Shown here piece after piece: positions 1-42,945 of a stretch of DNA of 64,000 nt. The DNA lies in IMG/VR virus record IMGVR_UViG_3300050821_003860, positions 4,023 through 68,022 of that record; one strand, written 5' to 3'. Made by a program: the position numbers and the translations under genes. The DNA is from a virus. How positions within the stretch are numbered: position 1 is the first letter of the stretch; each line of letters begins with the position of its first letter. The notes beneath the pieces are model-generated. The model was not told the origin of the DNA. It saw only the letters and a list, made by a program, of their open reading frames with translations, and did not search any database.

Positions 1-1
1 C

Positions 2-2023: not shown

Positions 2024-2189
2024 GGCTTCGCCTCCATAGTGGGTAGGGAACGCTCGATCTTTTCCAGACGCTCCTGTATTTTGTGCGACACTGCGACGAA
2101 TATGAACCATCCCGCCATGACGAACAGGGCCAAGCAACCGACCTCGCTCCGCGCCTCGTCTTTGGCAACCCTGCGGATTTCATCGTCGG

Positions 2190-2700: not shown

Positions 2701-3039
2701 ATGTCCGCCTCCGACCATGACGCAGCCGTGGCGTACCTGAAGGTTGCCAGCCCCGTCCCGCACGACTCAAGAGGCTATGTTTGCGACGCATTCCTAGCCG
2801 GGTGTAAGCACGGGAGGAGTGCAGGTGTGTCGGACGGCGCAGTGGAATCGCCAGAGTTACCGGAGGTCTACTTCCCTGTCTTCCACGACACGAAGGGGTG
2901 GGGAGTGTGGGAGGGAAACCAGAGGCTGAAGGGCGGACTGACGGAAGCCGCTGCGTATGACCTCGCTCACGCCCTGAACACAGCCCGCCGGGACCGGCAA
3001 AAGCTGTCCAAGCGCGACGTGATGGAGGCCAAGACATGA
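2701..3039 (+). CDS. Hypothetical protein
   Basis: AGGAG RBS; ATGA overlap with next gene. Confidence 0.55.
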   Translation: MSASDHDAAVAYLKVASPVPHDSRGYVCDAFLAGCKHGRSAGVSDGAVESPELPEVYFPVFHDTKGWGVWEGNQRLKGGLTEAAAYDLAHALNTARRDRQKLSKRDVMEAKT

Positions 3040-3431
3040 ACGAGCGATGCGAGACGTGCAAGTTCTTTCGTCGCCATCAGAATGGGAGAGACCACTACGC
3101 ATGGGGTAGCTGCCATCGTTATCCACCCGTTCTTGTGGGAGAACCAATGGGTGGCGTTCGCATCGAATTCCCGCAAATTAGCGATCAAGAGTGGTGCGGG
3201 GAGTATAAGTCAAGTAGCGAACCGAGCATACCCCTGAATGGTCGGGAGCGAAACCCGCTCTCTGCTTGGAAGCTTCGCATCGTCACATTCTTGAAGGAAA
3301 AGCAACTGGCAACGAGGCAGCAGATTGTAGCAGGAACCGGTGTACCCGTTGGCTCTCTTTCGTCACTATTACGAGACAAGACTTTCAAGAGCATATCGCA
3401 CGGAATGTGGGGATTGAGGGCTGATCTATGA
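3036..3431 (+). CDS. Cys-rich phage protein with C-terminal winged-HTH-like segment
   Basis: CETCKFF...GSCHRYPP...FPQISDQEWCGEY; ATRQQIVAGTGVPVGSLSSLL. Confidence 0.6.
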   Translation: MNERCETCKFFRRHQNGRDHYAWGSCHRYPPVLVGEPMGGVRIEFPQISDQEWCGEYKSSSEPSIPLNGRERNPLSAWKLRIVTFLKEKQLATRQQIVAGTGVPVGSLSSLLRDKTFKSISHGMWGLRADL

Positions 3432-3445
3432 GGGGGAACGCTTCC

Positions 3446-3537
3446 GGTGTACCGGGGGTGTACACCTACGGACAATCAGGGATAGTGTAAGTCGCCTGAA
3501 GTGCAAAATTGCACTCGTCTCGGGCCCGTGGTACGAT
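3446..3537 (+). promoter_or_regulatory. GGTGT-N11-ACACC (3446-3466) and GTGCAAAATTGCAC (3501-3514) overlapping a sigma70-like promoter TTGCAC-N17-TACGAT
   Basis: -35 at 3509-3514, 17-bp spacer, TGn extended -10 at 3532-3537, upstream of a run of small + ORFs. Confidence 0.7.
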
Positions 3538-3941
3538 TCTCCGCAAGAGGGACACCCATGCCAATCGACCTAGCCGAACGGGAAGCTTACCGGCGCCGCA
3601 TGCTCCGGCAGTTGTGGGAGCACGAGCTACACCATAAGAATGACCCTCCCGACGAGCCGGACCCGAAGCACTGGCGGAATGTGGGGAAGATCGAGATTGC
3701 TCCAGCGAAGGGGAAGTGAGTGCTGCGGCGACTTCTTACCATCCTGTTCGCTTGCCACCATTTCGAACGGCGCGGATGGTTCCGCGTGCTCGGCTTCGGC
3801 CTGCACTGGAAGGACGTTCGGAGGCACGCCCCGCTGTTCAGTGAACGCAACGGGCTGACATGGCATCTGAGGATTGGCTGGCTCAGTCTCGGGCTGCTGT
3901 GGCCCGATGGGACGTGGCGATACTTTACCCTGAGGCGACCA

Positions 3942-4330
3942 TGATCCGACGCAACTTCATCACCGGCTCTCTAGCGAGCCTCGCGGCGTTCTTCGGGCTG
4001 GGTAAGGCGGTAACGGCCGAGTCCGGAATCAGTAGCAATGTGCGGGAGTGGAAGCGGTACACGCCGGGCAGTGTTGCCGACTTTCAGGACTGGCCGAAAC
4101 TGGGGACCGTCATCGACGTTCCGCTCGGCGTGACCTACGAACCGCCGCCGTGGGGCGACTTCAAGTATTTCTGCGACCTGTCGTACAAGGTCGATGGCGA
4201 GGAGGTCAAGAAAGTCGGCGGGTTCCAAACGCTGGAAGAGATGATCGCGTTTATGAAGGCGACGGGACCGACAGGCGATCGTTTCGTGGAATCCATGCTC
4301 AAAGGTCAGGAGAAGCTACATGGCCAGTGA
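3942..4330 (+). CDS. Hypothetical protein with twin-arginine-like N-terminus
   Basis: MIRRNFITGSLASLAAFFGLGKAVTA. Confidence 0.5.
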
Positions 4331-4529
4331 AGGCGAGACGGTCAAGATCGAGGGTGCCGGCAGCTACATCGTCGCGGTGAAGAACTGCGCCCGCTGTCAC
4401 CAGGACCACGACGCGGTACAATTCCTGCGCCTCCGTCATCCATTAGAGGTATCCGGCATGACGCATTGGGCAAAGTGCCCGGTGACAGGCGAGCCGATCA
4501 TGGGTAAGCAAATAGACCCGGAGGTATGA
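4320..4529 (+). CDS. Small Cys/His zinc-binding protein
   Basis: CARCHQDH...THWAKCPVTGEP. Confidence 0.55.
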   Translation: MASEGETVKIEGAGSYIVAVKNCARCHQDHDAVQFLRLRHPLEVSGMTHWAKCPVTGEPIMGKQIDPEV

Positions 4530-4530
4530 C

Positions 4531-5556
4531 ATGGCCGCTCCTGTTCTCGGTCTGGACCAGTTCGGCGTGAATCTCTGCAAGGCCCTCGGGTTGAATCCGG
4601 ACGTGACGCGCCACATTTGCATGGACTGTCCGTGCGATGGGATAGTCACTGTTTACGTGGAGCAACACATCACGGAGGAAATGAGCCAGGAGGTCGTAGC
4701 CGCTGTCAAGGCAGCGAATCAAGAGAACTGGCGGAAGTACCTGCCGAAAGAAGGGCCTGACTCGGCAGCCAAGCTAACCCGCATCCTGGATGGCCGGATC
4801 GCCGAATTCTCCGACCACACCTACGCGGACATCCCGGCCGGCTTCGTGGCACAGCGGCGGGTGGGCGTGCTTTCCGAGTATCATCCTCCCCGGTGGCGTA
4901 TCTGTCGAGAGGAGCACGTCTATAAGGAAGGGTACGGAATTCTGATCCCGCAAGGAACCTGTCGAGATTACTTCGACATCGCCATGCGGTACATCACGCT
5001 AGCGAAGGACCTGCCGGAAGAGAAGATGGTGCAGGTCGGCGAGCGATTGTACTCGAAAAGGGTACTAGCTGAAGCTGCCGGACTGCCACCGGTTGAGATT
5101 GAACACCCTCGTTGGTGTGAGGACATCGAAGAGTGGACGCTCACTCCGGACAAATGGCTGAAGGGCGAGTTGCATTTCGAGGAGAAACCACCTCTCGGTG
5201 CCTTGTTGGGCATTAAATCGGTGGGAGCGATGTTATCGCCGGACGTAGTGACGGCCACGATAAAGGAAGCTGATGGTCGGGCTATCTGTTGGGCGAGTGG
5301 CACTCTCGCAATGCCGGGTGGGTGTTACCCGATTGCCGAACCGATTGAGTTGACCAATCCCCCGCAGAGAGTTTCTCTCAAAGGCCGTGCCGGCAGGGTG
5401 ATTGTTCTAGCCAAGCACGAAGGCCAGTGGTGGACTGCTTATCTGGAGAAGAGGGCACTAGAAGAGGCGGAAGCGACCTTGGGTGTACCGCCCGAAACAC
5501 CTGCGCCAAGCGAGGGCGACGCGGCAATGGAGTTCTTCCGGAAGACGAACCACTGA
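4531..5556 (+). CDS. Hypothetical protein (341 aa)
   Basis: GGAGG RBS, long ORF coupled to neighbours. Confidence 0.65.
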   Translation: MAAPVLGLDQFGVNLCKALGLNPDVTRHICMDCPCDGIVTVYVEQHITEEMSQEVVAAVKAANQENWRKYLPKEGPDSAAKLTRILDGRIAEFSDHTYADIPAGFVAQRRVGVLSEYHPPRWRICREEHVYKEGYGILIPQGTCRDYFDIAMRYITLAKDLPEEKMVQVGERLYSKRVLAEAAGLPPVEIEHPRWCEDIEEWTLTPDKWLKGELHFEEKPPLGALLGIKSVGAMLSPDVVTATIKEADGRAICWASGTLAMPGGCYPIAEPIELTNPPQRVSLKGRAGRVIVLAKHEGQWWTAYLEKRALEEAEATLGVPPETPAPSEGDAAMEFFRKTNH

Positions 5557-13053: not shown

Positions 13054-14490
13054 ATGGCACTTCGGACTCGAAAGCGGCCCGTCTATCAAAATGGCGCCGA
13101 GCGGCGGACGCGGGAGTTGGTGGAAGACTACCGCCCGCGCCTCATGCCCTACGCGCCTCCGGGATACTACGAAACGCCCCCGGACGCTGTGGACCCCAAC
13201 CGGTATCAGGAGCAGACCTCCGTTACCCGCAACCGGGGCATCAACAAGCTCGGCCAGAATATGCGGGCATTGTGCGAGTCCGTGGGACCGCAGGAAGCGG
13301 CGAACATTCTCGGTCGTCTGCTTCAGTCCGGGGAGATCAAGCACACCAATTTCTCGATCAAGGAACTCGCGGAAGCGTTCTGCGGTCGGGATTGGGTGGA
13401 ACGTCTCAACCCTCAGAGGGGCGGGCAGTATCAGCGGTCTGTGATGGAAGGCGGGGCCGGGCAGGGTGTTGATGTCTCGGCGTTTTCGGACATCATCGGG
13501 CAAATCTTCTTCACTCGAATCTTGGAGGGATGGCGCAACGCGACCCTGGTAGCGGAGAAGATTTTCGACCGCCAGCCCACTGAGTTCAGCGGTGAAAAGC
13601 TGCCGTGGCTCTCCCATGTGATTCAGGAAGGCCAGCCGATCCAGTCGAACATGCCGTACCCGGAAGCGAACTTCGGGGAACGGTGGGTGCAGACCCCCTA
13701 TACGCAGAAGTGGGGTATGATCGTCTCCGTCACGCGGGAGATGATCTTCTTCGACCGCACCGGCCAGGTCACTCGCGCGGCTTACGAAGTTGGGAAGAAG
13801 CTCGGCTACAACAAGGAAAAACGCTGTCTCGTCTGCTTCATGGGCATGACGAATACTTACTCGTTGAACGGGACGACGTACAACACCTACAACGTCGGTC
13901 CTCAATCCCCGCCGAGTTACGCGAACGCGCAGGCATCGACCCCGTTCGTGGATTACTCCTCGCTCCAGACGCCCCTAACGCTGTTCAGTCAGATTCTGGA
14001 CCCGGACACGCTGAACCCTCTGGATACCCCGGACTGCAAGGACTTGTTCGTCCTGCCCGCGCGGCTGTTGCACGCTCGGGCCGTGGTGAAGGCGTCGGAA
14101 TATTGGGGCACGAACCCGGCGTTCAACTCTTCGCCAGCTGCCGGGGAGCCCTACGGCAACCTCCAGATGCACTCCCCGAATCCCTGGATGGACGGGGCGC
14201 TGAACATCATCACCAGCCCGATCGCTTACCAATTGCTGACGGCGGGTTCACAGGTCTACGCTCCGGCGTGGGTGAACCTGACCGCCAATCAGGCGAACGA
14301 ATACTGGTGGGTGGGTGATTTCAAGCGGGCCTTCAACTACATGGAAAACTGGCCGATTACCGTCGTGCAGGCGCCGCCTCAGTCGATCCGCGAATTCGAG
14401 CAAGATTTGGTGCTCCGTTACAAGGTGAGCGAGATGGGCACGCCGGCCGTGATCGAGCCTCGGTATCTGTGCCGCCTCAATAACAGCTAA
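13054..14490 (+). CDS. Major capsid protein (HK97 fold, Mu gpT-like)
   Basis: KWGMIVSVTREMIFFDRTG; C-terminal GTPAVIEPRY; size and synteny. Confidence 0.88.
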   Translation: MALRTRKRPVYQNGAERRTRELVEDYRPRLMPYAPPGYYETPPDAVDPNRYQEQTSVTRNRGINKLGQNMRALCESVGPQEAANILGRLLQSGEIKHTNFSIKELAEAFCGRDWVERLNPQRGGQYQRSVMEGGAGQGVDVSAFSDIIGQIFFTRILEGWRNATLVAEKIFDRQPTEFSGEKLPWLSHVIQEGQPIQSNMPYPEANFGERWVQTPYTQKWGMIVSVTREMIFFDRTGQVTRAAYEVGKKLGYNKEKRCLVCFMGMTNTYSLNGTTYNTYNVGPQSPPSYANAQASTPFVDYSSLQTPLTLFSQILDPDTLNPLDTPDCKDLFVLPARLLHARAVVKASEYWGTNPAFNSSPAAGEPYGNLQMHSPNPWMDGALNIITSPIAYQLLTAGSQVYAPAWVNLTANQANEYWWVGDFKRAFNYMENWPITVVQAPPQSIREFEQDLVLRYKVSEMGTPAVIEPRYLCRLNNS

Positions 14491-29502: not shown

Positions 29503-30490
29503 ATGACACGCGATGAGTTACTCGAAAAGATTTCCAAAGCATGGCCCGCGATTGCGGCTACGTTCCGAGTGCCGTTGCCTCCGAAGTTTGAGACCGTGAA
29601 GACGGAGTACATGCACGACTTTGAGAAGTACGGGTGCATCATCGAAGCCACGGACGAATGCTTGCAGTTCGACCTCAGCGATAAGGTCATCAATGAGCTT
29701 CATACGGCCGCTCGCAATCTTGGCCGGAAGATTCGCGGCTTGTGGTATGAAGCGATGTCTCTAGACAGTCGAGAGGTTTATCTCGGCCCTCACTGAAGGC
29801 ATGGATCGGGAAGGCAAGTTGAAGCTAGGCGAGGATTGTTTCCGAGAATCGACCATCGACCTCTGTTGGCTGGAGAACTGGCCGCTAACGTGTGTCCAGG
29901 GGCCGCCTGAAATCGACTTCGATACAGGTTTGCCCGTTCCCGGAGCCTCACCCGTCCGCTTCAAGATATCCATTCGCGGCGGGTGGCGATGGATCACTCA
30001 TTACGAGAAAACGATCCTCGAAATGGGCGGGGTGATCGCTCGACTCATGCTGCCCGAACCGCGACTGTTGCCGATGGACTCGGTGAAGTGGGATCCGATC
30101 CGGGAAGGCGAAGTATACCCTCTCATTCGGAAAGTAGGGAAGGACGATTAGAGATGTCCTTTGTCCGTTCGAGTGCAATTTTGCACAGGGGAGGACAAGC
30201 CCATGTCCGTCGTGGAAAGCTACTTTGATCAGGCCAGAGCGAGGATGTGCTACGCCTTCCCGGACGGCGATGTCTCGGAAGTCCTTTGGGAGAAGTACCC
30301 GCAAGATGCCGGCGTCCGGTACACGTTCACGGTCGACCTCGGCTACCCGGAGCCGGTTGTCGTCCACATGATCGTAACGCGGGAGGACGCCCGCCGGACC
30401 AAATCACCCGATCAACTAGCGATGCTGTACCGCAACCGGATCGAGAGAGCACTGGCGGAATTGGGGCGCCAGACCAATCGGAAGGTTTAG
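29503..30490 (+). CDS. Three small hypothetical ORFs (29503-29796, 29801-30151, 30203-30490)
   Basis: Tightly packed with plausible RBS. Confidence 0.5.
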
Positions 30491-30537
30491 GTGTACACCC
30501 CCGGTACACCCAGCCTAAAAAGGGACAAGCTTTGTCT

Positions 30538-33270
30538 ATGAACAAGCAATTAACCGTCGCAATGGCCGCATACGGACCCAGCGAAAGCAATAACGTCTGG
30601 TTTACGTGCGAGGCGCTTCGCACCTACCACGGATACGACTTTGACCTCGTGGTAGTGAACTCCGGGCCGGAAGACTGCCGGCATATGCGGGCGGTGACGG
30701 AGGCGTGTCGGGGCAAATATGTCTGGCGCCCGGACCTTACGGGGACCAGTGCTCCGCGCGATCACGTCTTTGAGTTGGCGCAGACAGAATGGGTGATGTG
30801 CATTGACTCGCACATCTTCCTGGTGCCGGACGCGGTTCGTCACTTCCACGGATTTATCGCCCAGTCTCCCAACTGCACCGATATCGTTTCCGGACCGCTC
30901 TTCCAAGACAACGGCGAGATTCAGGGCTACAAATGGGGCGGCGATGAGACGTGCGGCCTGTGGGGAATATGGGTCCATCCAGAATGGGAGGAAAAAAAGC
31001 GGGCTGCGATGCCCTTTGAAATCCCCATGATGGGCCTTGGTCTCTTTGCCATGCGCAAGGAAGCGTGGCCGGGCTTCAACCCACTCTTTCGGGGTTTCGG
31101 AGGGGAAGAAGGGTACATCCATGAAAAGGTACGTCAGCAAGGCGGTAAGGCTATTTGTCTCCCCTGGCTTGGATGGAGACATAAGTTCCGGGACACGAAA
31201 GAGGCGGGCAAGGGAGACCCGACGCCGTACCCGTGCTTGATTCAGGATCACACGTTTAACCTATTGGTCGGGCATCGGGAGTTGGGCATCGATGCGGTGG
31301 CGAAGATTCACCGTCACTTCGGGGACCGCATGCACCCGCTCATGTGGGCGGAACTGGTCAAGGAATCGGAACGGGTCCAGCCCTTCGGAGAGTGGGCCAG
31401 GACACAGACGCCTCTCGACAAGCATTACCGCAAGGAACTGAAGCGGGCGAGCACGATCAACCAGCACATGCCGACGCTCAAGAAGCTGGCCTGTGAGGCG
31501 AGCGAGGTAGTCGAGTTCGGCGTACAGACGGCGCAGAGCACGGCAGCCCTACTCGCCGGTCGACCGGAGCGGATGCGGTCCTTCGACATCCAGTACAGTC
31601 AGGCGGGGGTGGAAGTGCTCAAGATGGCAGCGCCGGAGACGCTATCCGCCTCGTTCACTCAAACGGACACGCTGTCGCTTGCCCCACAAGCGAGCGACTT
31701 GCTTTTCATTGATACGTTGCACACCTGCGAACAGCTCTATCAAGAGCTTTACTTCCACAGCACGCACTGCCGGCGTCGGATCGTCATGCACGATACCGCC
31801 ATCTTCGGGGATGTCGGGGAGGACAAGGGCCCCGGACTCCGTGAGGCGATCCGGAGATTCCTGAAAGAAGCGGGGAACTACGGCTGGCACGTCATGTCGG
31901 ACACGGAAGTCTCCTGCGGCCTGACGGTGCTCTCCAGCGATCCGAAAGACCCCTGGCAATATCCGGACTGGTTAGGCGACCTCATTCCGAAGCTGAACAT
32001 TCTCGGCATCTGGTACACGAACAACAAAGCGCCCGCGAGTTTGATGAAGAGGTCGCTCCAGTCCATCGAAAAGGCGGGCAAGTCGTCGCGGCACAACGTC
32101 AATCTCACCGTCTCCTGCTGGGACACGGTAGAAGGACTGCCTCCTGGAACACCCTACGCTTTCGCAGAGGACCGCAACGGGAATCACGTCACCATCACCC
32201 GGCAGATGAAGCAGTGTCTAGACCTCGCGGAAGGCTGGCCGTGGGAGATAGTTTGTTTCTTGGAACACGATACCCTCTATCCCCCCGATTACTTTGACCG
32301 GGTGGGGAGAGCGTTCCTTGAAAACCCCTCTGCGCCCGTGGTCAGCAACATGGACTACGAAGGGCTCAACGCAACCGGGTGGTTAGCCGTGCGCGAACGC
32401 CATGAGCCGATGCACCAGCTTTCTTTGCGGAGAGACGTGGCGATCGAGAACCTTGCTCGGTGCGAGCGAGACTTCCTCGCGGCCGTGCCGGGGACTCTAC
32501 TGGAGCCCCAGAGCGGACCGGACGGGGACCGATCGAACTGGGCACGGATTCCGTACACCGGGGCCATGCCGTCCATCCATGTGAATTTCCACGGACGCTT
32601 CACCTCGCATGGGGAGGTGGTGTACGAGCAAGATTCACACGGAAAGGTGATGCACCGCTTTTGGGGGTATGCCGGGGACTACTGGCCGGGAGACTTGGAC
32701 GGCAAGGTTCCCCCGCTGGTCGGGCCGAAAAACGGCTGGGGAGTGCCGGCCCTCTTGGACCTCTATGGAAGGGTCTTTGCCGAGCACGCGGACAACGGCT
32801 GGCAAGATGCGATGATGCGGCTCCGCAGGATTTCAGCGGGACAAAATCACGTCACGTTGATTTCCGGGGGACCGACTCCGGCGTTCATTGCCCTGGCAAC
32901 GGGACGGCCGAAACAGCTTTTGCACGTCTGCCCCGGGGGAGACCCGAGCTGGAATGCGTTCCTGTCCAAACACGTGTCAATGGGTCAGAACACGACCCTA
33001 AAGACCAATCCGAGCCTGGACCCGTTCTGGCTGGAAGACACGGACGTCACGCCTACCGATGTGATGGTGTTCTCGGATACCCCGGAGGCGGATCGGTTGC
33101 AGGCCCTTCTGGTGCGTCATGCGGCGAAGTCCCGACAGAAGGTAGTGATTTGCCTCACCCCGGAGATGAAGGAACAGGAAGGGGCGGAAGCGTGGTTACA
33201 GTCGATGCCGGAGTGGGGACGGAAGGACGCCCCGCACGGGATCCTAGTCTTTCAGAGGGTAGGAAACTGA
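30538..33270 (+). CDS. Multidomain protein: GT2-like glycosyltransferase + class I methyltransferase + second GT-A-like domain + degenerate methyltransferase-like tail
   Basis: WVMCIDSH and FRGFGGEEGYIHEK; VVEFGV, DLLFIDTLH, IVMHDT; VCFLEHDTLYPPDYF. Confidence 0.85.
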   Translation: MNKQLTVAMAAYGPSESNNVWFTCEALRTYHGYDFDLVVVNSGPEDCRHMRAVTEACRGKYVWRPDLTGTSAPRDHVFELAQTEWVMCIDSHIFLVPDAVRHFHGFIAQSPNCTDIVSGPLFQDNGEIQGYKWGGDETCGLWGIWVHPEWEEKKRAAMPFEIPMMGLGLFAMRKEAWPGFNPLFRGFGGEEGYIHEKVRQQGGKAICLPWLGWRHKFRDTKEAGKGDPTPYPCLIQDHTFNLLVGHRELGIDAVAKIHRHFGDRMHPLMWAELVKESERVQPFGEWARTQTPLDKHYRKELKRASTINQHMPTLKKLACEASEVVEFGVQTAQSTAALLAGRPERMRSFDIQYSQAGVEVLKMAAPETLSASFTQTDTLSLAPQASDLLFIDTLHTCEQLYQELYFHSTHCRRRIVMHDTAIFGDVGEDKGPGLREAIRRFLKEAGNYGWHVMSDTEVSCGLTVLSSDPKDPWQYPDWLGDLIPKLNILGIWYTNNKAPASLMKRSLQSIEKAGKSSRHNVNLTVSCWDTVEGLPPGTPYAFAEDRNGNHVTITRQMKQCLDLAEGWPWEIVCFLEHDTLYPPDYFDRVGRAFLENPSAPVVSNMDYEGLNATGWLAVRERHEPMHQLSLRRDVAIENLARCERDFLAAVPGTLLEPQSGPDGDRSNWARIPYTGAMPSIHVNFHGRFTSHGEVVYEQDSHGKVMHRFWGYAGDYWPGDLDGKVPPLVGPKNGWGVPALLDLYGRVFAEHADNGWQDAMMRLRRISAGQNHVTLISGGPTPAFIALATGRPKQLLHVCPGGDPSWNAFLSKHVSMGQNTTLKTNPSLDPFWLEDTDVTPTDVMVFSDTPEADRLQALLVRHAAKSRQKVVICLTPEMKEQEGAEAWLQSMPEWGRKDAPHGILVFQRVGN

Positions 33271-33512: not shown

Positions 33513-34253
33513 ATGCGCGTCTTAGAGAGCGGTGAAACTCCCTTCCGCTGGTGGCGACTGGCGGATGTCGTTGGTGGCGACGATATCATACGTGCCGCTG
33601 TTGCAAATGTTCCTCCCGAGACGTGGCCTTGCTGGGTGAGATATTCCAATGACATCGAACGGGGGAAACGCACGACCCGTGAACTCGGAAGTCAGCACTA
33701 TGTCCTCAGAAACGTGGCTGATAGGGTTAATTCTTCGTGGCAAGCTTTTGAGTTCGGCCGATTGATAGGCGATCCGACAGCGATTGTTCCTGATCCAGAC
33801 TATCACGGCGCCGGGTTACACATCACCGATCCCGGCGGCTGGCTTCAGGCGCATGTGGACTACGAACTTCATCCCCGGCTCAATGGCTGGGAGCGGCGTC
33901 TAAACCTCATTCTCTGGCTCAATGAGACGTGGAAACCGGAATGGGGTGGGGCACTAATCCTCTGCGATGGTATGGGGGAGCGGAAGCAGACTTTCTACCC
34001 GATTCCCGGCGAGGCTATCTTGTTTGAGGGTGGCCCTGACTCCTACCACGGGGCCATGCAAACGTCACAGGATGCCCCGCCACGGGTCACGCTGGCCGCG
34101 TACTACCTTGCCCCGGCTAGACCGTCCGCGACCCGCCGCAGGGCGTGTTTTTTCCCAAACAGGGATGCTCCAAATTGCCCCCGTGAGGTGCGGATACCTG
34201 TAGGTGTACCGGGGGTGTACACCGGGGCCGTTTCAACTCAGGCGGCGCTTTAG
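33513..34253 (+). CDS. 2OG-Fe(II) oxygenase (prolyl-hydroxylase-like)
   Basis: GAGLH...LQAHVD...RRLNLILWLN..WKPEWGGAL...SYHG...RVTLAAYY. Confidence 0.88.
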   Translation: MRVLESGETPFRWWRLADVVGGDDIIRAAVANVPPETWPCWVRYSNDIERGKRTTRELGSQHYVLRNVADRVNSSWQAFEFGRLIGDPTAIVPDPDYHGAGLHITDPGGWLQAHVDYELHPRLNGWERRLNLILWLNETWKPEWGGALILCDGMGERKQTFYPIPGEAILFEGGPDSYHGAMQTSQDAPPRVTLAAYYLAPARPSATRRRACFFPNRDAPNCPREVRIPVGVPGVYTGAVSTQAAL

Positions 34254-34398
34254 TTCTAGCGTTTTGGTGTCCTTTAATAGTAGGATGATTGCACAACTGG
34301 ATGGTTAAGCGTGCAAGCCGTCCTACAGTGGCACGGGGTATGCGTGATAGTAGAGGGCGCCCTTCCTCTACTCCGGAGACGACGATGGGGCTTCAAGA

Positions 34399-34653
34399 GT
34401 GGATCCACTACGCAACGATCTTTGGGCTTATCGCGCCATTCTTTGCTGCGCTATACTACTTGCGCTGGCGCCAGTCGTGGCGGCGTTCGTCCACGTCACC
34501 TGCCCCAACGAGGTCAACACCGTCTCCAATCTCGCCACCGGAGCCCTCCTTGCCCTTATCACGCCCCGCGCGGGAAACGGAAAAGGCTCAGGAAACGGTA
34601 ACGGCAACGGATCAGGTAATGGACCACTTCCTGCGCCGGCAACCAGAACATGA
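34399..34653 (+). CDS. Small two-TM membrane protein with GNG tail (holin-like candidate)
   Basis: Two hydrophobic segments; choice of frame here is uncertain. Confidence 0.4.
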   Translation: MDPLRNDLWAYRAILCCAILLALAPVVAAFVHVTCPNEVNTVSNLATGALLALITPRAGNGKGSGNGNGNGSGNGPLPAPATRT

Positions 34654-35007
34654 CTGCCCGTACATGGACGCGAACCAACATTGCACCTGGCCGGACCACA
34701 AGCGGCGGGTTGAGGCACGGCGGGAGCGGATGAGTCTGCCGACTGTCTGAGAAATGGCAAAGCCAGTGAAAGTAAGCGGGAGAATCGCCGTGACGGATTC
34801 GGAGGCGCATACCATCGTCCAGGGGGCGGCTCGCATACTGATCGAGGCTGTGCTTCGAGTGATTGAAGACGACCCGCATCAGTGGAGCAACCGGCTGTGC
34901 GCCTCGTGTCGCGCCGTGAGTTCCGTGGTGGGCAGGCCCTTCGGGTGCGAGGCGAAGCATCAGGCGGGCAGGGGAAGGAAGAACGGCCACTAGCGGGAGG
35001 CGAATTA

Positions 35008-35250
35008 GTGGAATGGCTCCCGGTCATACAGACTGTCGGTATACCCTGTGCCATTCTGGCCGTACTGATTTACGGCGTCTGGCAGGGATCAAAAGCTATC
35101 ATGCGCGACGTTATCAAGGTTCTGGTCGCGGAATATGTCTTGACCCTGAAGGAACTCCGGGAAGCCTACAAGTCGCTGGCAAAGGATTCCTCTGAGATTG
35201 CCAAGGCATATATCGACATCTCCAAGCGCATTGGAGGGCCCAGTGCCTGA
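35008..35250 (+). CDS. Holin-like single-TM plus coiled-coil protein
   Basis: GGAGG RBS; IQTVGIPCAILAVLIYGVW followed by an amphipathic helix. Confidence 0.55.
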   Translation: MEWLPVIQTVGIPCAILAVLIYGVWQGSKAIMRDVIKVLVAEYVLTLKELREAYKSLAKDSSEIAKAYIDISKRIGGPSA

Positions 35251-35797
35251 AATCGGGTCGATTCTGCAAGCGACGACGCTTCTGATACTTGCGATCATCG
35301 GGATCGTCGCGTGGCGTTTATCGGTTGCTTGGCGTCAGGCCGTAAAGCCGATTGCTCGTGGCGTACCCCGTGATGTAGCTGATTCCGATGAAGCCCGCGT
35401 GATGATCAATCCGGACGGTGTTATCCTAGATGTCTCTCCTCCTGTCCTGCCAATGTTCGGCTACACACGGGAGGAATTGATCGGCCAGAATGTCAAGGTA
35501 CTCATGCCGTCACCCTACCGAGACGAGCACGATGGCTACCTTGCTCATTACCGGGACACTGGGGAGCGGAAGATCATCGGCATCGGGCGAGACGTTCAGG
35601 GCCGACACCGTTCCGGGCAGCAATTTCCGGCACGGCTGACGGTGAGCGAGGTCAAGCGGGCCGATGGGTCGGTGAGTCACTTCCTGGGTGCTCTAGAGGA
35701 AACGACGCGCCGGGAATGGGCAAAGGAGAAGGCGCGGGCCGATGCTGCCTATGGTGGCATTGCGGAATCTCATCCTAAGACTGGCGGTGTACCGTGA
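35243..35797 (+). CDS. Membrane-anchored stand-alone PAS domain protein, FixL heme-PAS-like
   Basis: MFGYTREELIGQNVKVLMPSPYRDEHDGYL.HYRDTGERKIIGIGRDVQGR; N-terminal TM; no kinase domain. Confidence 0.85.
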   Translation: MPEIGSILQATTLLILAIIGIVAWRLSVAWRQAVKPIARGVPRDVADSDEARVMINPDGVILDVSPPVLPMFGYTREELIGQNVKVLMPSPYRDEHDGYLAHYRDTGERKIIGIGRDVQGRHRSGQQFPARLTVSEVKRADGSVSHFLGALEETTRREWAKEKARADAAYGGIAESHPKTGGVP

Positions 35798-35915
35798 CGC
35801 TAACGGACTTCTTCTGGCTCAATGTCGGTGCCACTCTAATGTGGCTTGCGATGTCCCTACCACACTTAATCCGAGAACACTCCATCCCGCTGTGGGTGCG
35901 AAAGGCGGTGCGAAG

Positions 35916-36092
35916 ATGGGAATAGTCATTTTGGTCTGTTTTGTGATGGTCATGTTTCTGTGGCTGCTCTCGCTGTTGGGAGCCGTGCCCAACGCGCCGA
36001 ACTACTCACCGTGGCTGGCTTGGTTTGCCTGTCTCTTTCTTGGTCTCATCGTCTTCATCGGAGTGGGTGGCTGGTCCCACTTTGCGCCATGA
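35916..36092 (+). CDS. Small two-TM membrane protein
   Basis: Strongly hydrophobic 58 aa. Confidence 0.55.
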   Translation: MGIVILVCFVMVMFLWLLSLLGAVPNAPNYSPWLAWFACLFLGLIVFIGVGGWSHFAP

Positions 36093-36565
36093 GCCAACGA
36101 CTCCACGAGCACGAGTGGGAAGGCGGCAAGTGCTCTCTTTGCGGCATGCCCGATCCGCGTTGGACCGCCGGGCCACGAATTTTCAGATACGAAGTCGATC
36201 GCTTCGACAATGCGATGACCCTGATTTTTCTAGCGATAGGACCGATAGCTTTCGTGGCTGCAATCGTGCTACTCATCATCAAGGCCATCTCGCCATGACT
36301 CCCGAACGCGACCTCTTAGACATCCTGCGCGACAAGGCCGAAGTGACAGGCCGGATGTACCGTCGTGCCGCATCGGAGCCACAAGGCGTTGAGTCTCAAG
36401 ACACCATTGATAAGCTACGTCTCTCGTGGCTGGAATGCGAGGAAGCCGTGGCGCGGGAGATACTGAGGAAGTCCCCTTCACCCGGCGGTGCGTCCTAGGC
36501 TCATCCTCGTGGGAAGGGTCTTTTCGACACGGACGACCGCCGGGCTTTAATCAATCGGAGAGTAT

Positions 36566-37045
36566 ATGTCCGCTCAGAATGGCCAGTCTCTTGAAGTGCG
36601 TGCGACCAACTACGAGACCATGCGGCACATCGAACAGGTTCGCCGCTTTCTAACCCTGTTCGTGACCGAATTGCTTGACCGCGCCATGCTGCACGATCAG
36701 TCGAAGATGGCGACTCCAGAAGCCGAGATGTTCGCGGAGTTCACATCAAAGCTGGCCGCGTCCACCTACGGCAGCCCGGAGTACGAAGGCTTTCGGGCTG
36801 CGATGGGTCCGGCCCTGGCTCACCACTATGCCAAGAACCGACATCACCCGGAGCATTTTGCGAACGGCGTGGACGACATGAACTTACTTGACCTCGTGGA
36901 GATGTTCTGCGACTGGAAGGCAGCGACGTTACGGCACAACGACGGAAATATCCGGAAGTCCATCGAGACGAATGCCAAGCGGTTCGGCCTGTCGCCGCAA
37001 TTGGTGCGGATTCTGGAGAATACGGCCGATTTCGTTGACGGTTAG
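36566..37045 (+). CDS. HD-like phage protein (DUF5662-type)
   Basis: HDQSK, HHYAKNRHHPEHF, DLVEMFCDW. Confidence 0.8.
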   Translation: MSAQNGQSLEVRATNYETMRHIEQVRRFLTLFVTELLDRAMLHDQSKMATPEAEMFAEFTSKLAASTYGSPEYEGFRAAMGPALAHHYAKNRHHPEHFANGVDDMNLLDLVEMFCDWKAATLRHNDGNIRKSIETNAKRFGLSPQLVRILENTADFVDG

Positions 37046-37592: not shown

Positions 37593-38972
37593 ATGAAAGA
37601 TAAGCGTTGGCTCGGTCCATCGGTTCTGTTCGCCGCAACCATGATCGGCCTTGGCTTCGTCTACGGCTTTCAGCCTGCCGCCCCTCCCATTCGCGCCGAC
37701 AAGCCCGCAAGCAAGATCCACACGCACTACCGCCGACCGGGCATCCGCGCCCATGTCACGGGCACCTCGTACACGCCTCCGGGGGTGGCGGCGAAGTACA
37801 ACTTTCCGAATGGCGTTACGGGACACGGTGCTCTGGTCGGCATCATCGAATTAGGGGGAGCGTACAACCCTAGCGACATCACAACGTACATGGCTGGGCT
37901 TGGAATTAGTCCGACTGGCGTCTTGCAAGTCATTACTGTTCAGGGCGCAAGACCACCGACTAGCGACGGGCCGACCGGTGCCGATGGCGAAGTGATGTTG
38001 GATGCAGAAGTGATCTACTCGATCGCTCCTGGCGCCAACATCAACATGTACTTCGCAGACAATACCGCTGCCAGCTTCCTCGCGGGATGTCAGCAGGCAC
38101 GGCAAGACGGTTGCAAGATAATCTCGATTTCCTGGGGAGGTCCGGAGGCAGGCTACTCTGCGGCGGAACTACAGGCGTTCAATACCGAGTTTGAGACAGG
38201 AGCGAACAGTGGTGTCAATTACTTCGTTGCGGCTGGGGATAACGGCTCCAACGATGGTACGACAGGTCTCGCAGTCGATTTTCCTGGTAGCTCGCCGTGG
38301 GTCATCTGCTGCGGTGGAACATCCCTCCCGGCGAGTGGGGCCGAAACGGTCTGGAACAACGGACCAAGCAACGGAGCTACGGGTGGCGGTATCTCAGCCC
38401 ACTTCCCTAAGCCCGCCTGGCAGACCGTCCAGCCCTTCGGAGTAACGAGCACTGTCGCCAACCGCATGTCGCCGGATATTGCTGGCAACGCGGACCCGGA
38501 CACCGGGTATCAAACGCTGGTGGATGGCACGTCGGGGACCATCGGCGGGACATCCGCTGTCGCACCGCTGTACGCTGCGATGACGGCCCTCTATTGGGAG
38601 AAGCTCGGCAAGGCACCGGGTTTTCTCGGACCGCAACTCTACGGTGTGGTGAGTCCGTACCAGAAGGCTTTCATCGACATCGTTCAGGGGAACAACGGCA
38701 ACTACAAGGCAGGGACAGGCTTCGACTGCGCGACCGGTATCGGGCGACCGGACGGCGCGAACTTGCTCACGGCTCTTGGCGGTCCTAGCGGTGGAGGAGG
38801 GGGCGGCGGGCCCACGGCAACACCAGCGTTTACCCTGAACTTCCCGACCGCAGTACCGGCCGGCGCGACGTTCCGGATTCGCACGTCAAAGGCAATCGCC
38901 AAAGGTTTTTACAACGCCTTCCCGGTGACGGCACCAGCGGTGGAAGTTGAAGTGGAAGCCGTGGCGAAGTAA
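37593..38972 (+). CDS. Secreted S53 (sedolisin/kumamolisin) serine protease
   Basis: Signal peptide; GIIELGG, DGEVMLD (Glu/Asp), ISISWG, AAGDNG, GGTSAVAP (Ser), Ca site DIVQGNN...GFDCATGIG. Confidence 0.92.
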   Translation: MKDKRWLGPSVLFAATMIGLGFVYGFQPAAPPIRADKPASKIHTHYRRPGIRAHVTGTSYTPPGVAAKYNFPNGVTGHGALVGIIELGGAYNPSDITTYMAGLGISPTGVLQVITVQGARPPTSDGPTGADGEVMLDAEVIYSIAPGANINMYFADNTAASFLAGCQQARQDGCKIISISWGGPEAGYSAAELQAFNTEFETGANSGVNYFVAAGDNGSNDGTTGLAVDFPGSSPWVICCGGTSLPASGAETVWNNGPSNGATGGGISAHFPKPAWQTVQPFGVTSTVANRMSPDIAGNADPDTGYQTLVDGTSGTIGGTSAVAPLYAAMTALYWEKLGKAPGFLGPQLYGVVSPYQKAFIDIVQGNNGNYKAGTGFDCATGIGRPDGANLLTALGGPSGGGGGGGPTATPAFTLNFPTAVPAGATFRIRTSKAIAKGFYNAFPVTAPAVEVEVEAVAK

Positions 38973-39110: not shown

Positions 39111-40856
39111 ATGCGTTGGCTCCGGTTGGCTCTGCTCTGTTTCGCCTTGTTCGCCGTCGTTTTCGCTCAATCTCCCGTCCAGCCCTCCATTCCCACGAAG
39201 GGCAAACCGCCCGATCCTCCCGCAGAAGACGGGCCTATCAAGCCACACGCTACAACCGATTCAGGAGTGCGGGAGGCTCTACGTGATATCGGGATCGAGG
39301 CTGTCTTCGGTGCGGGTCCAGTCACGCGGTATATCTTCATCGACGACACCGATGAGGAGTTGTTCAAGGCCACGGTCCTAGCGCTGCACTACGTTCTGCG
39401 GGCGAGTCATCCGATCCACTACACGGCGATACCGGGACCGCTCTCGGTCATCATCCGGGTGGACTTGAGCGAGTCTTACCCTGGAGAAAAGAACCTGGCG
39501 GACGTGTTGAAGGTGTGGGAAGGATTCCGGTTCGACCCGCAATTCAATCTCCTGCTGACGCCCGATGTCGTCGAACTCTCGGCGTTCTCGGTCAAGATTC
39601 CCGATGAGGCGAAAACGGGGGAAACGCTACGCTTCAACGCTCCCGACCTCGATCAGCAGCAGTACGAGATACTCAAAGCGGTAACTGGTAGTCAGGCGCC
39701 GATCGTTGACTACCGCTATTTGATCTTCCGCGCCCTCTCCACGATCAAAGATGACGGGCCGTACCGTGATATCTTCGGAGGGCTGTACTATGACCTGCGA
39801 GGAATCAAGAAAGCCGATGCCGAGCAGAAGAAAAAGGGGGCGACCGACCAAGACGTTTTCTTTGAAACTCTCGGTGTCGGGAATATTGCTGCTGGGGAAC
39901 CTTACGAAAAGCTGCTTGACCGAGTCCGAGGGGATCTTCGTCCGTCTCTGTTTATATCGGACGTTACGGGCCATCCTCGCTCCGTTGTTGCCTTCCACAC
40001 ACCCGGAGAGCGAGAGGGAGGATCCTGGGGCGCCGTCACCTGGGATTTGAAGCGAAAGAGCATCGACGTTCGACAACACCCGGTACTCTCGCAGATCAAA
40101 CCCAAGATCGACGCGCAGGAAGCGATCTTCGGCACGGCGGTTCTCCCGATCTTCGCCCTGTTCGACGGCAAGGGGAACTTGCTGGAGAAAGCCGACGCGG
40201 ACGTAGTAGCAGATCGCACCGCACAGGCACCGCACGATACGGAGTTGCAATCAGCGATATCGTGTATCAGGTGTCATTCGGAGGAAACTTGGAAGCCGCT
40301 CCGGGATGACATTGCCGGATTGCTGGAAGCCGATAGGGTGCGAATCTTCGCGGATGTGCAATTCTCAAACGACTTGGCCGACAGTCAGGACAGAGTTTTG
40401 GCCCTCCATTCGGTGATACCGGGCCGTCCACCGGGTCCGAGAACGCGACAGCAGCGCATCCTCGACAAACTTTTACAGAGGGAAAGAGACGACTTTGGGC
40501 AAATGGTCGCAGAAATAACCGGCCCGTGGAAGCGACTGACCGGACATCAAGAGGATGTCGGGAAAGTGGCGACAGCCAAGATCGCATCCATCTACGCCGA
40601 CTTTTGGTACTCGCCAGTGTCAGCGCACGAGGCGTTACTCGACATTGGTCTATCCGTCCCCCCCGCGCGATCGGCGGACGTTCTGACGAAACTGCTGGCC
40701 GAAGAATCGGGCAAGGTTCTCGGCGTGCAGTTTGAGGACATCCGTCTGACCCAACTCGCGGCGGGCGGAAAGATAGGCCGAGCGGACTGGAGTCTCATTA
40801 GATCATTCGCTGCCGGGCGAGTGAATGCAGGGGTGGCGAAGCTACTCAAGCCCTAG
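39111..40856 (+). CDS. Secreted protein with single CxxCH (putative c-type cytochrome)
   Basis: Signal peptide; SAISCIRCH. Confidence 0.7.
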   Translation: MRWLRLALLCFALFAVVFAQSPVQPSIPTKGKPPDPPAEDGPIKPHATTDSGVREALRDIGIEAVFGAGPVTRYIFIDDTDEELFKATVLALHYVLRASHPIHYTAIPGPLSVIIRVDLSESYPGEKNLADVLKVWEGFRFDPQFNLLLTPDVVELSAFSVKIPDEAKTGETLRFNAPDLDQQQYEILKAVTGSQAPIVDYRYLIFRALSTIKDDGPYRDIFGGLYYDLRGIKKADAEQKKKGATDQDVFFETLGVGNIAAGEPYEKLLDRVRGDLRPSLFISDVTGHPRSVVAFHTPGEREGGSWGAVTWDLKRKSIDVRQHPVLSQIKPKIDAQEAIFGTAVLPIFALFDGKGNLLEKADADVVADRTAQAPHDTELQSAISCIRCHSEETWKPLRDDIAGLLEADRVRIFADVQFSNDLADSQDRVLALHSVIPGRPPGPRTRQQRILDKLLQRERDDFGQMVAEITGPWKRLTGHQEDVGKVATAKIASIYADFWYSPVSAHEALLDIGLSVPPARSADVLTKLLAEESGKVLGVQFEDIRLTQLAAGGKIGRADWSLIRSFAAGRVNAGVAKLLKP

Positions 40857-41472
40857 GCAGATGGGTCCAGTTCAGGTGTCGGATGATCCTACGGATTGTT
40901 TTCTCTGTGACGCCGAATTCAGCGATGAGTTCCTGAAGGTTGCCTTTGGTCGGAGGAATATAGCGACGGCGAATCTCCATTACTTGCTCAGAGGTCAGCT
41001 TGGCCGTGTTGATCCGCTCGCCCTTGCAGTTCCTTTTCTTGGCCATCTTGTCAGCGATGTTGTCCAGTTCCGTTCCGATGAACAGGTGGGACAACCGGAC
41101 GCATGAGGGATTGTCGCAGTGATGAAGTATCTGAAGGTTTTTGCCAATAGGACCATGAGCCTGTTTCCAGACCCAGCGATGGGTAAGGACGCCTTTGCCG
41201 CTGTCTCGGAATTGCCCATAGCCATCCGTCGTTTTTCCTCGTGTCCATACCCAACAATGACCGAGTTCTGGCCTATGGGGCGGGATCGGACCTTTCTTGT
41301 CCACGTAAGACCAGAATCGTTCCCGAATTCGTTCGGGCCGAACTTCCCATGCTTCCTTGCATTTACGAGAACAGAACTTACCAATGCCGGTTTTGATTTG
41401 ATAAGCGGTCGCCAGAACGGTACCGCCGCATTGAAGACAGGGGATGTCGGTCTTGATACGATGATGGGACAT
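40846..41472 (-). CDS. HNH homing endonuclease with C-terminal HTH
   Basis: RFWSYVDK, CWVWT, GYGQF, THRWVW, ILHHCDNPSCVRLSHLFIGT..DN, AKLT. Confidence 0.92.
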   Translation of the reverse strand: MSHHRIKTDIPCLQCGGTVLATAYQIKTGIGKFCSRKCKEAWEVRPERIRERFWSYVDKKGPIPPHRPELGHCWVWTRGKTTDGYGQFRDSGKGVLTHRWVWKQAHGPIGKNLQILHHCDNPSCVRLSHLFIGTELDNIADKMAKKRNCKGERINTAKLTSEQVMEIRRRYIPPTKGNLQELIAEFGVTEKTIRRIIRHLNWTHLPRA

Positions 41473-41868
41473 CGGGAAGTCTCCTTTCCTGGTGTCAGGG
41501 AGCGGCGTGCTGACACACGGCCGCTCCATCATTTTAGTGGAAATCTCCAGAGAGAGTAGCCATAATGCGTGCGGGCCGGATCAACCATAACATCGCTAGA
41601 CTACTGGCTGAGCAGAAGGGGAAGCCGTGATGGACGTACAAGCCGGTTTGGCAGCAATGAAGGGCGCCGAATGGGTTCTTTTCGGGGTTTTGATACTCTG
41701 CACGGTTGTTTTCCCGCTAACCTTGCTTTTCAGTTACTTGTCTGAGAAATATGAGGCTAAACGTAGACTTCGCAAAGCTGCTCTAGAGATAATCAACGGC
41801 TTGAGGGATGGCACAATAGTTCCAGACGAGCCATTATCTCAACGGTCTAATTTCACGAAAGGAAACCC

Positions 41869-42945
41869 ATGAAACTCCTCTCAGGCACCGTCGCCTGCCT
41901 ACTGCTGTTACTCATCGTCGCGCCATCTCCGGCAAACGACCCCTACCCGGAAGAAATGGACGGTCGCACAACGGATCGTGGCTACCGATACCACGACGGG
42001 TACTGGTGGAAGAATGGCATCTCGTTCACTCGGCACGGCGTCTACGAAACCGCCTACCGGTCCTACGGCTGCTGCGGACAGACGCAAGCGTACCAGCGGC
42101 TAGTTCGGGTGGACTATGAGCCCTACGTAGTTGCCGCGCCTCCCTATGTCGCGCCGTTGCCTACGGTGAAGTACACGCCCAACTGGCAGACCGAAGCCCT
42201 GAAGACGATGGCCAAGCGGGATGACCTGAACGCCTTCAGCAACACGGTCCAGACCCTTAACGCGACCGCGATCCAGGGCACCTATCCCAGCGTCACGGCT
42301 CACGGCACCTACGCCGGTGGCTACGGCGTCTCCGGAACGACCCTGTACGCACGCGGCGGCTACAACGCTCTGACGAGTCAGCTTTACTCGACGTTCGACC
42401 TCAACGGGGCCAACATCCAGTACGCCCAGGCCACGAATAACCTCATCCGGGCAGCCAAAGACGCCCACGGTGACTTTGGGCAGATTACTTCCCAATTCAA
42501 CGAAGGGGCGCGGCAGGTGGCGGTTATCCAAGCCCTCGCTTCCGGAAGTCAGCAACCGCCCGTCTCGGCGTCTACCTCGTTCCAAGCCGCCCCTACCGCT
42601 CCCGTTGCACCAGTGGCCCCACAGGCTCCGCAGACGCCTCAAACCGGCCCTACGATGCCCCGGGCGCCGGAAGACGTTGGCGCGGCCTTAACGGCGGTCT
42701 GGCAGAACCGGTGTGCAAGTTGTCATACCGGAGCGCAGGCACAGAAGGGATTCACGTTCCAGACCTATCAAGGGTTGAGCCGGCAGGCCAAGATCGACAA
42801 GGTTTGGATGCGGCTAGTTTCGGAGGATTCGGCGCGATTGATGCCTAGAACAAAGGATGGCGTTGGGCAGAGGCTTCCGGATAGTGAGTTGGCCATCTGG
42901 CACAGCGACATCCTTAACATGCCAAGTCCGACTCAGAAGCAGTGA
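41869..42945 (+). CDS. Secreted protein with C-terminal planctomycete-type cytochrome c domain
   Basis: Signal peptide; NRCASCH...LMP (distal Met)...LPDSELAIW. Confidence 0.75.
   Translation: MKLLSGTVACLLLLLIVAPSPANDPYPEEMDGRTTDRGYRYHDGYWWKNGISFTRHGVYETAYRSYGCCGQTQAYQRLVRVDYEPYVVAAPPYVAPLPTVKYTPNWQTEALKTMAKRDDLNAFSNTVQTLNATAIQGTYPSVTAHGTYAGGYGVSGTTLYARGGYNALTSQLYSTFDLNGANIQYAQATNNLIRAAKDAHGDFGQITSQFNEGARQVAVIQALASGSQQPPVSASTSFQAAPTAPVAPVAPQAPQTPQTGPTMPRAPEDVGAALTAVWQNRCASCHTGAQAQKGFTFQTYQGLSRQAKIDKVWMRLVSEDSARLMPRTKDGVGQRLPDSELAIWHSDILNMPSPTQKQ

Follow-up and report, generated by a model that had tools for sequence, protein, structure and literature searches.

A predicted membrane-anchored FixL-type haem-PAS protein encoded among small membrane-protein genes of an uncultured soil phage

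What might a phage do with a FixL-type PAS domain that is tethered to the membrane and carries no output domain? The question is raised by one gene, hereafter the PAS gene, in a 64,000-base stretch (the window, by which the whole stretch analysed is meant throughout) of the 68,022-base IMG/VR virus record IMGVR_UViG_3300050821_003860, which is classed as linear and estimated to be 82% complete. The record is that of an uncultured soil phage; the stretch is present in one soil-metagenome DNA run, which is probably the source sample, and no RNA run is listed. A preliminary description of the locus had proposed an oxygen- or redox-sensing protein coupled to a holin-like gene and controlling lysis, or alternatively a decoy for host kinases. 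From its domain content, pocket residues and anchor, the PAS protein can with good confidence be considered an output-less, membrane-anchored haem-PAS sensor, and we weigh below, more tentatively, what such a sensor might act upon.

The reading frame itself appears secure. The PAS gene opens on GTG with a GGAGGG motif 5 nucleotides (nt) upstream, and two independent gene callers place its start there, giving a protein of 184 amino acids (aa). Pfam recognizes PAS families and no other in the product (PAS PF00989, E 3.7e-12, and PAS_9, 9.5e-12, over residues 48-155), and in NCBIfam it reaches 80.4 bits with TIGR00229 (cut-off 22.9). Its best NCBIfam match is the FixL equivalog NF041777, with a score of 92.3 bits where the cut-off is 850; of the 485 model positions, the alignment takes in 134-239 and no others, which is the haem-PAS part. 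In a phmmer search of all PDB chains, 18 distinct sequences passed E <= 1e-3. FixL haem domains fill the first seven places, with E values from 2.3e-25 (1d06) to 1e-19, including 1dp6 at 1.4e-20; EcDOS/DosP follows (5e-13 to 1e-11), and LOV proteins also rank below FixL. Judged by these scores, the FixL-type match is far beyond chance. Because the equivalog match is limited to the haem-PAS segment and falls so far under its cut-off, we assign the protein to the FixL-type haem-PAS domain family and not to the FixL kinases. No kinase or other output domain is found in it by Pfam or NCBIfam, it ends 31 residues past the PAS core, and no response-regulator family is found among the open reading frames (ORFs) scanned with Pfam (14, 39, 29 and 13 queries, in overlapping sets). 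The preliminary description had read the protein as a transmembrane (TM) helix followed by a single FixL-like PAS domain that keeps the EHDGYL histidine and lacks an output domain, and this reading is confirmed.

The residues expected to hold and read a haem are largely in place. An account of FixL describes a proximal haem ligand on the F-alpha helix (His194 in SmFixL, His200 in BjFixL), a distal BjFixL Arg220 that hydrogen-bonds bound O2, a haem-propionate contact made by BjFixL Arg206 or SmFixL Arg200, and a hydrophobic distal face formed by SmFixL Ile209, Ile210, Leu230 and Val232 (PMC10765370). With residue numbers of the FixL equivalents checked on an alignment to 1dp6, the proximal histidine, the distal arginine and the Ile-Ile/Leu/Val distal face of the phage protein are identical to those of SmFixL (Table 1), and its EHDGYL stretch matches the aligned stretch of RmFixL letter for letter. 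Of the 16 columns that are invariant across a 40-sequence family alignment, the phage protein retains every one, including His96 and Arg116 (each 40/40), Asp97, Tyr99, Ile111 and Ile112.

The predicted structure agrees with this assignment. An AlphaFold2 model (mean predicted local distance difference test score, pLDDT, 84.2) has an N-terminal helix at residues 4-33, a PAS core at 51-153 (nt 35393-35701) with strands at 51-55, 60-64, 116-121, 127-137 and 146-153, and a C-terminal helix at 156-174, and Foldseek places FixL haem domains first among its matches (BjFixLH; TM-score by target 0.92-0.94, root-mean-square deviation 1.3 A). Close variants of the protein also differ from it in a domain-specific way. 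Among the best 120 of 418 matches there are only two other full-length relatives, P0002 (80% identity, on an 833-nt contig) and P0003 (72%, on a 2,164-nt contig); identity to them, in that order, is 94% and 88% in the PAS core but only 36% and 9% in the N-terminus with the TM helix, the TM region being hydrophobic in both. Together, the conserved pocket and a PAS core kept at 88-94% argue that the haem pocket is in use. A further PAS protein, P0150, which is within 90% identity of P0003, is encoded on a 68,519-nt Joint Genome Institute (JGI) contig, probably that of a sister phage of similar size that has retained the gene. IMG/VR holds no close relatives of the PAS protein, nor any found with P0150 as the query; tblastn against 50,697 GenBank phage records gave no match at E <= 1e-3; and a metagenome scan returned cellular FixL-type loci only, at <=60% identity, and not the contigs of P0002 and P0003.

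The genetic setting of the PAS gene is as distinctive as its product. It lies in a run of eight tightly packed plus-strand ORFs (34385-36498) that follows the tail genes, in which neighbours overlap (GTGCCTGA, GTGA and two ATGA) or are separated by gaps of a few bases, and no other cluster of small TM-protein genes occurs in the window. The PAS gene shares 8 nt with the 80-aa ORF upstream (GTG start at 35243-35245, TGA stop at 35248-35250), and its own stop overlaps the start of the 43-aa ORF by 4 nt (GTGA). As far as gene layout can tell, translational coupling of the PAS gene to small membrane-protein genes is supported. The small flanking ORFs are open frames with coding-like third-position GC content (GC3, 0.63-0.76). 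Four ORFs contain TM segments that pass a hydropathy threshold of 1.6: those of 80 aa, 58 aa (two segments) and 69 aa, and the PAS gene itself. In the 121-aa and 43-aa ORFs, a hydrophobic stretch at the N-terminus was read by eye and falls below that threshold. Both the overlap of the PAS start with the end of the preceding ORF and the flanking by small membrane proteins had been proposed in the preliminary description and are confirmed; its start for the cluster, at 34399, belongs to an out-of-frame ORF and is better replaced by the frame 34385-34750, which has a GC3 of 0.68 and is in the protein collection, as a singleton. Neither this 121-aa ORF nor the 79-aa ORF has a family match in Pfam, PHROGs or NCBIfam. 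The 80-aa ORF has GGGAGG before its GTG and the same start from two gene-calling pipelines. The 43-aa and 58-aa ORFs are absent from the protein collection, and so no gene caller had called them.

The anchor of the PAS protein is flanked by a glutamate before the helix and five Arg/Lys residues after it, and the same order, acidic before and basic after, is seen in every N-terminally anchored protein of the cluster. Because of these charges, the positive-inside rule predicts that the PAS domain and the other anchored soluble parts face the cytoplasm.

A comparable design is encoded by a second phage. Scanning IMG/VR with the PAS family alignment gave two loci, L251 and L252, the first of which belongs to G1206, a 46,088-nt record estimated to be 50% complete, in which PHROGs identify terminase, portal, protease and major head protein genes. 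The PAS gene is the only gene that G1206 and the window have in common, and its product is 44% identical to the window PAS protein over 127 aa (tblastn). It has one TM helix, acidic before and basic after, a FixL-type PAS domain (Pfam PAS, E 5.6e-14) with the same His, Arg and Ile-Ile residues, a short tail and no output domain, and its gene likewise adjoins small TM and coiled-coil ORFs, three of them directly downstream. The two loci differ in that the membrane ORFs of G1206 lie downstream of the PAS gene and have no demonstrable homology to the 80-aa ORF of the window. Two of the three TM and coiled-coil ORFs of G1206 have weak, non-significant matches to Rz-like spanin PHROGs (E 0.004-0.036). 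Also beside the PAS gene of L251, a 74-aa two-TM ORF on the minus strand (144-368) belongs to PHROG 1374, of unknown function (E 2.3e-15), and the TM and coiled-coil ORFs are followed by a 300-aa ORF with a weak Peptidase_C39_2 match (E 0.0034) and then by a glutaredoxin-methyltransferase fusion. The other locus, L252, was set aside as a further phage example: a 10.9-kb contig classed as viral terminates there in a complete hybrid kinase of cellular type, and the contig probably flanks a prophage or has been misclassified.

How the phage domains relate to cellular ones was examined in a tree of 70 domains over 114 columns, with 66 cellular rows and with high-scoring segment pairs (HSPs) of <100 aa and the long-branch L201 dropped; its resolution is poor. 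In another PAS tree, HSPs of <90 aa were dropped and 77 of 80 loci kept. Holding the four phage PAS domains together gave +3.76 in log-likelihood against the free search and was not rejected (approximately unbiased test, p-AU 0.60). The nearest cellular rows in the 70-domain tree are Gemmataceae and a Myxococcota-labelled metagenome-assembled genome, and from run to run they are Verrucomicrobiota, Myxococcota or Gemmataceae, with the phage clade on a long branch and no one donor lineage favoured.

Whether the neighbours of the PAS gene are lysis genes is a separate matter. The preliminary description had taken the 80-aa ORF for a holin-like gene, and this identification found no support. The ORF does have the generic holin features of a TM helix (residues 6-24) and a helical tail rich in Lys, Arg, Glu and Asp, but searches of Pfam, PHROGs and NCBIfam place it in no holin family, with E values as lax as 1-10 allowed, and no lysis enzyme is recognizable nearby; nor do any of the small cluster ORFs match holin, antiholin, spanin or endolysin families in these collections at lax thresholds. 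An exhaustive search of 1.84 billion representatives found three short, unannotated relatives of the 80-aa ORF (P0122, P0125 and P0126; E 2.8e-9 to 7.8e-4), which have no holin family match either, and a scan of IMG/VR with an alignment of this small family found nothing. The 80-aa ORF was also considered as an i-spanin and rejected, being too short, with a charge pattern around the helix opposite to that expected and no spanin family match. Neither the window nor the record's first 4.8 kb yielded a lysozyme, amidase, peptidoglycan peptidase or spanin family. The claim that the cluster sits where lysis genes usually lie fares better in one respect, since it does follow the tail module, and worse in another, as no lysis enzyme is recognizable there. 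The sole hydrolase near the small membrane-protein genes is an S53 peptidase without a pro-domain. Its N-terminal segment is rich in Gly and Ala and weakly hydrophobic, its C-terminal extension measures ~60 aa, and it could be a secreted or envelope-degrading enzyme. By an argument from absence, the cluster and this downstream peptidase are the best place to seek the lysis genes of the phage.

Table 1. Features of the window, with the corresponding loci of other IMG/VR records (residue numbers are those of the 184-aa PAS protein unless noted)
Feature	Position	Strand	Remarks
Terminase fragment, portal, major capsid protein, tape-measure-like protein, then tail-region genes	to ~30 kb	+	
Portal		+	PHROG 21, E 9.5e-42
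Major capsid protein	13054-14490	+	Pfam Phage_capsid_4
Family 2 glycosyltransferase (GT2) ORF	30247-33270	+	up to 1007 aa, start uncertain; GT2 domain near N-terminus
2-oxoglutarate-Fe(II) (2OG-Fe(II)) oxygenase, an O2-using enzyme	33513-34253	+	Pfam PF13640, E 8.6e-13; directly upstream of small-gene cluster
121-aa ORF	34385-34750	+	hydrophobic residues 10-28 (by eye), Pro/Ser/Thr-rich linker, Cys/His-containing C-terminal part
79-aa (or 67-aa) soluble ORF	34754-34993	+	Cys-containing; GC3 0.76; called at either length
80-aa ORF	35008-35250	+	N-terminal TM at residues 6-24, hydropathy peak 2.14; charged helical tail
Membrane-anchored haem-type PAS protein, 184 aa	35243-35797	+	TM, PAS core, C-terminal helix
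N-terminal TM helix of PAS protein	35261-35326	+	residues ~7-28; hydropathy peak at residues 10-28
His96 (CAC)	35528-35530	+	predicted proximal haem ligand; SmFixL His194 / BjFixL His200
His102			SmFixL Arg200 / BjFixL Arg206; propionate-contact position, departs from FixL
Ile111, Ile112, Leu132, Val134			SmFixL Ile209, Ile210, Leu230, Val232; distal hydrophobic face
Arg116 (CGA)	35588-35590	+	distal; SmFixL Arg214 / BjFixL Arg220
43-aa ORF	35794-35925	+	hydrophobic residues 6-22 (by eye), basic tail; candidate gene
58-aa ORF	35916-36092	+	two TM helices, peaks 3.09 and 2.35; no charged residues; candidate gene
69-aa ORF	36089-36298	+	N-terminal CxxC stretch, C-terminal TM helix; ATGA overlap with 58-aa ORF; in protein collection
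67-aa soluble ORF	36295-36498	+	ends packed run; ATGA overlap with 69-aa ORF; in protein collection
DUF5662 protein	36566-37045	+	Pfam PF18907, E 1.3e-38; directly downstream of cluster
S53 (kumamolisin-like) peptidase	37593-38972	+	PDB kumamolisin-As, E 4.2e-84, query residues 57-395; Pfam Peptidase_S8
First CxxCH protein	39111-40856	+	hydrophobic signal-peptide-like N-terminus; one CxxCH haem-c motif
Second CxxCH protein	41869-42945	+	hydrophobic signal-peptide-like N-terminus; one CxxCH haem-c motif
Replication/recombination genes	far half of window	-	DNA methylase, helicase, YqaJ exonuclease, Erf
G1206 TM and haem-type PAS protein	L251:514-1113		
G1206 TM and coiled-coil region	L251:1082-2602	+	
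L252 hybrid histidine kinase	L252:1-2191	+	GAF, haem-type PAS, PAS, kinase, receiver; complete

We propose, tentatively and at somewhat less than an even chance for the chain as a whole, that the PAS protein is a haem-based gas or redox sensor that acts through co-encoded membrane partners on a late membrane event. A b-type haem would be held by His96. As happens in FixL, Arg116 together with the pocket of Ile111, Ile112, Leu132 and Val134 would read O2, CO or NO, or the oxidation of the iron, at the distal face. Shifts set off in this way in the PAS sheet and the C-terminal helix (156-174), a putative stub of the FixL coiled-coil linker, would then alter contacts with partners and not the activity of an attached enzyme. 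The likeliest partners would be the single-pass proteins of the coupled run, that is, the products of the two ORFs that overlap the PAS gene, the 80-aa ORF at its start and the 43-aa ORF at its stop. The output would be a late membrane event, most plausibly permeabilization or lysis timed by the respiratory state of the host, lysis timing being the leading candidate. Haem binding, the cytoplasmic orientation, the partners and the process under control are all things that we infer; co-encoded partners and a late membrane event are favoured because the PAS gene is coupled on both sides, the topology is shared within the cluster, and membrane and coiled-coil neighbours recur in G1206.

A number of observations weigh against this proposal. 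Haem binding is a prediction, and the propionate arginine is absent, with His102 in its place. The latter weakens the case little, because that column has arginine in just 7 of the 40 sequences aligned (Asn in 20, His in 10); on this alignment, the propionate arginine does not define the environmental subfamily to which the phage protein would belong. The FixL account further describes SmFixL R200 variants as retaining FixL-like spectra but undergoing autoxidation in air, and places the UV-vis bands of SmFixL itself at ~395 nm (ferric), ~434 nm (deoxy), ~418 nm (oxy) and ~424 nm (CO) (PMC10765370). The N-terminal cap helix of cellular relatives is replaced in the phage protein by the anchor and a low-confidence linker. 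The partners are candidates only: a word-based search of 5.8 billion proteins with the 80-aa ORF finds the ORF itself and no other homologue, though a sister phage exists, and hhalign gives a probability of 7% for its relationship to a TM and coiled-coil ORF of G1206. Only two phage lineages were found, too few for a statistical test of recurrence. Finally, no endolysin, holin or spanin family is recognizable among the ORFs scanned in the window and in record bases 1-4800, and for this reason the link to lysis is one of position and membrane topology only.

Comparison with better-known systems helps to define what would be new in such a sensor. The FixL haem-PAS domains of Sinorhizobium meliloti (1D06, 1EW0) and Bradyrhizobium japonicum (1DP6, 1XJ4, 8JS5) share the fold, the subfamily and the start of the C-terminal linker helix with the phage protein, whereas the latter has neither a DHp (HisKA) nor an HATPase_c kinase domain and no FixJ-type partner gene, carries a new single TM helix in place of the cap helix and a histidine in place of the propionate arginine, and is phage-encoded, inside a run of tiny membrane-protein genes. 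Escherichia coli DosP/EcDOS (1V9Y, 1S66, 9CDR) is likewise an O2-sensing haem PAS fold, but it is further from the phage protein than FixL is and has cyclic di-GMP phosphodiesterase output domains; its distal ligand chemistry is different as well. In the manner of signalling that is proposed here, the closest parallel may be the short LOV proteins, such as PpSB2-LOV (PDB 7A6P, which is among the Foldseek matches of the PAS protein), in which a PAS core with flanking helices and no output domain is thought to signal by protein contacts. Such proteins are described as lacking obvious signal transduction domains (PMC4416707). They differ from the phage protein in using flavin and light in place of haem and gas and in being soluble, cellular and not phage-encoded.

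Phage antiholins, such as T4 RI and lambda S107, set the time of holin triggering by a signal, and the PAS protein resembles them in concept only. There is no sequence or fold relation, no holin is identified in this phage, and, to our knowledge, no antiholin is a cofactor-binding PAS sensor.

The main rival to an action on co-encoded partners is an action on the host, in which the kinase-less haem-PAS protein pairs with or tethers host FixL-type kinases and, as a decoy or modulator, rewires their low-oxygen response. The identity of the host matters here. Scans of 301 genomes from each of four phyla turned up relatives of the capsid protein in 12 for the Planctomycetota (best E 4.2e-33), 4 for the Acidobacteriota (best 1.4e-12) and none for the Pseudomonadota or the Verrucomicrobiota; neither GenBank phages nor a pattern scan of genome contigs yielded a capsid match. 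The prophage-like relatives in Planctomycetota (L233-L250) share the head module only, namely portal, scaffold-region and capsid genes. FixL-type haem-PAS kinases appear common in that phylum, which accounts for 20 of the 77 usable best genome loci. On account of the capsid relatives, the planctomycete-like CxxCH proteins of the phage and the frequency of FixL-type kinases there, the balance leans toward a host in the Planctomycetota. Such kinases would hence be at hand for a decoy; FixL haem domains are, moreover, described as dimeric in solution (PMC10765370), and full conservation of the pocket residues is what would be expected if the sensing state mattered. However, a path of ~2.8-3.5 changes per column separates the long-branched phage clade from the closest cellular domain, and identity does not exceed ~50-53%, which is distant for a specific heterodimer; the cap helix of the cellular relatives has been replaced. 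A decoy also needs neither a membrane anchor nor tight coupling to small membrane-protein genes. We consider this explanation unlikely, though it deserves to be kept in mind.

It is rather less likely still that the protein binds another ligand or has a structural role in a membrane function other than lysis, such as superinfection exclusion, receptor masking or modification of the envelope alongside the neighbouring glycosyltransferase, with the FixL-like residues inherited and not used. The layout of the phage genome is compatible with such a role, as the cluster lies in a typical accessory region, between the 1007-aa glycosyltransferase ORF and secreted proteins. Between the tail half and the replication half, this region comprises the GT2 ORF, in which ~700 further residues have no family match, the oxygenase gene, the small-gene cluster, and the genes for the DUF5662 protein, the S53 peptidase and the two CxxCH proteins. 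The absence of any recognized lysis family from the cluster points the same way, as do the short PAS-only proteins of uncultured phages in BFVD, which at 165-240 aa and <=16% identity to the window PAS protein are very different from it. An unused pocket is nevertheless hard to reconcile with the retention of all haem-pocket invariants and with a PAS core that stays 88-94% identical across otherwise diverged variants.

In looking for relatives of this region, we found none of the S53 peptidase or the 2OG-Fe(II) oxygenase in IMG/VR. Relatives of the DUF5662 protein, taken as a synteny handle, occur at 71 IMG/VR loci, and none of the 71 shares another gene with the window. Promoter- and terminator-like sites in the window are no commoner than in shuffled sequence; a terminator-like hairpin is seen at 34227-34246, at the oxygenase gene.

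The region also has an oxygen and haem theme, made up of the haem-PAS gene, the 2OG-Fe(II) oxygenase and the two CxxCH proteins. Both of the latter weakly resemble planctomycete cytochrome c. The protein at 41869-42945 has a sub-threshold match to PSCyt1 (E 0.005), and the one at 39111-40856 falls, by language-model features, in viral clusters of 182, 65 and 76 members, with PSCyt1 carried by related bacterial clusters. An HNH endonuclease gene on the minus strand (40846-41532; PHROG 59, E 1.2e-26) lies between the two CxxCH genes and may be a homing endonuclease insertion. With the oxygenase encoded upstream and the two secreted CxxCH proteins downstream, the PAS protein might be a haem-handling or oxygen-buffering accessory, that is, a membrane-tethered haem holder that serves these proteins or protects against haem or oxygen stress. 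This we regard as improbable: c-type haem is attached outside the cytoplasm, whereas the PAS domain is predicted to lie inside it, the conserved residues include those of ligand sensing (the distal Arg and Ile-Ile) and not those of haem holding alone, and we know of no haem chaperone with this fold. Least probable is a decaying, functionless fragment of a captured host kinase gene. Although the domain clearly stems from FixL-type kinases of cells and the family is tiny (three variants and one distant phage relative), the gene has an uninterrupted frame, a Shine-Dalgarno-like motif of its own and a new membrane anchor, conservation is domain-specific among variants that differ by 20-28% overall, and the same architecture occurs in the unrelated phage G1206.

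The current view is that phage lysis is timed by the accumulation of holin and the energization of the membrane. In the full-text literature searched, outside which most subscription journals lie, we found no phage-encoded haem-PAS protein or other cofactor-based gas sensor and no oxygen input to lysis timing. A broader generalization, that some phages carry a haem-based O2 or redox sensor at the inner face of the membrane and time its breach via small membrane partners, the anchor-fused form being one of several independent inventions, is speculative and on present evidence doubtful. If an action on a late membrane event were true, the direct reading of oxygen or redox state would constitute an environmental input to infection decisions, and one of relevance where oxygen levels vary, as they do in soils and sediments. 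Should its target be something other than lysis, the PAS protein would still offer a compact natural module for the study of how PAS domains signal to partners with no enzyme attached. It also extends the very thin record of phages that infect Planctomycetota-like hosts.

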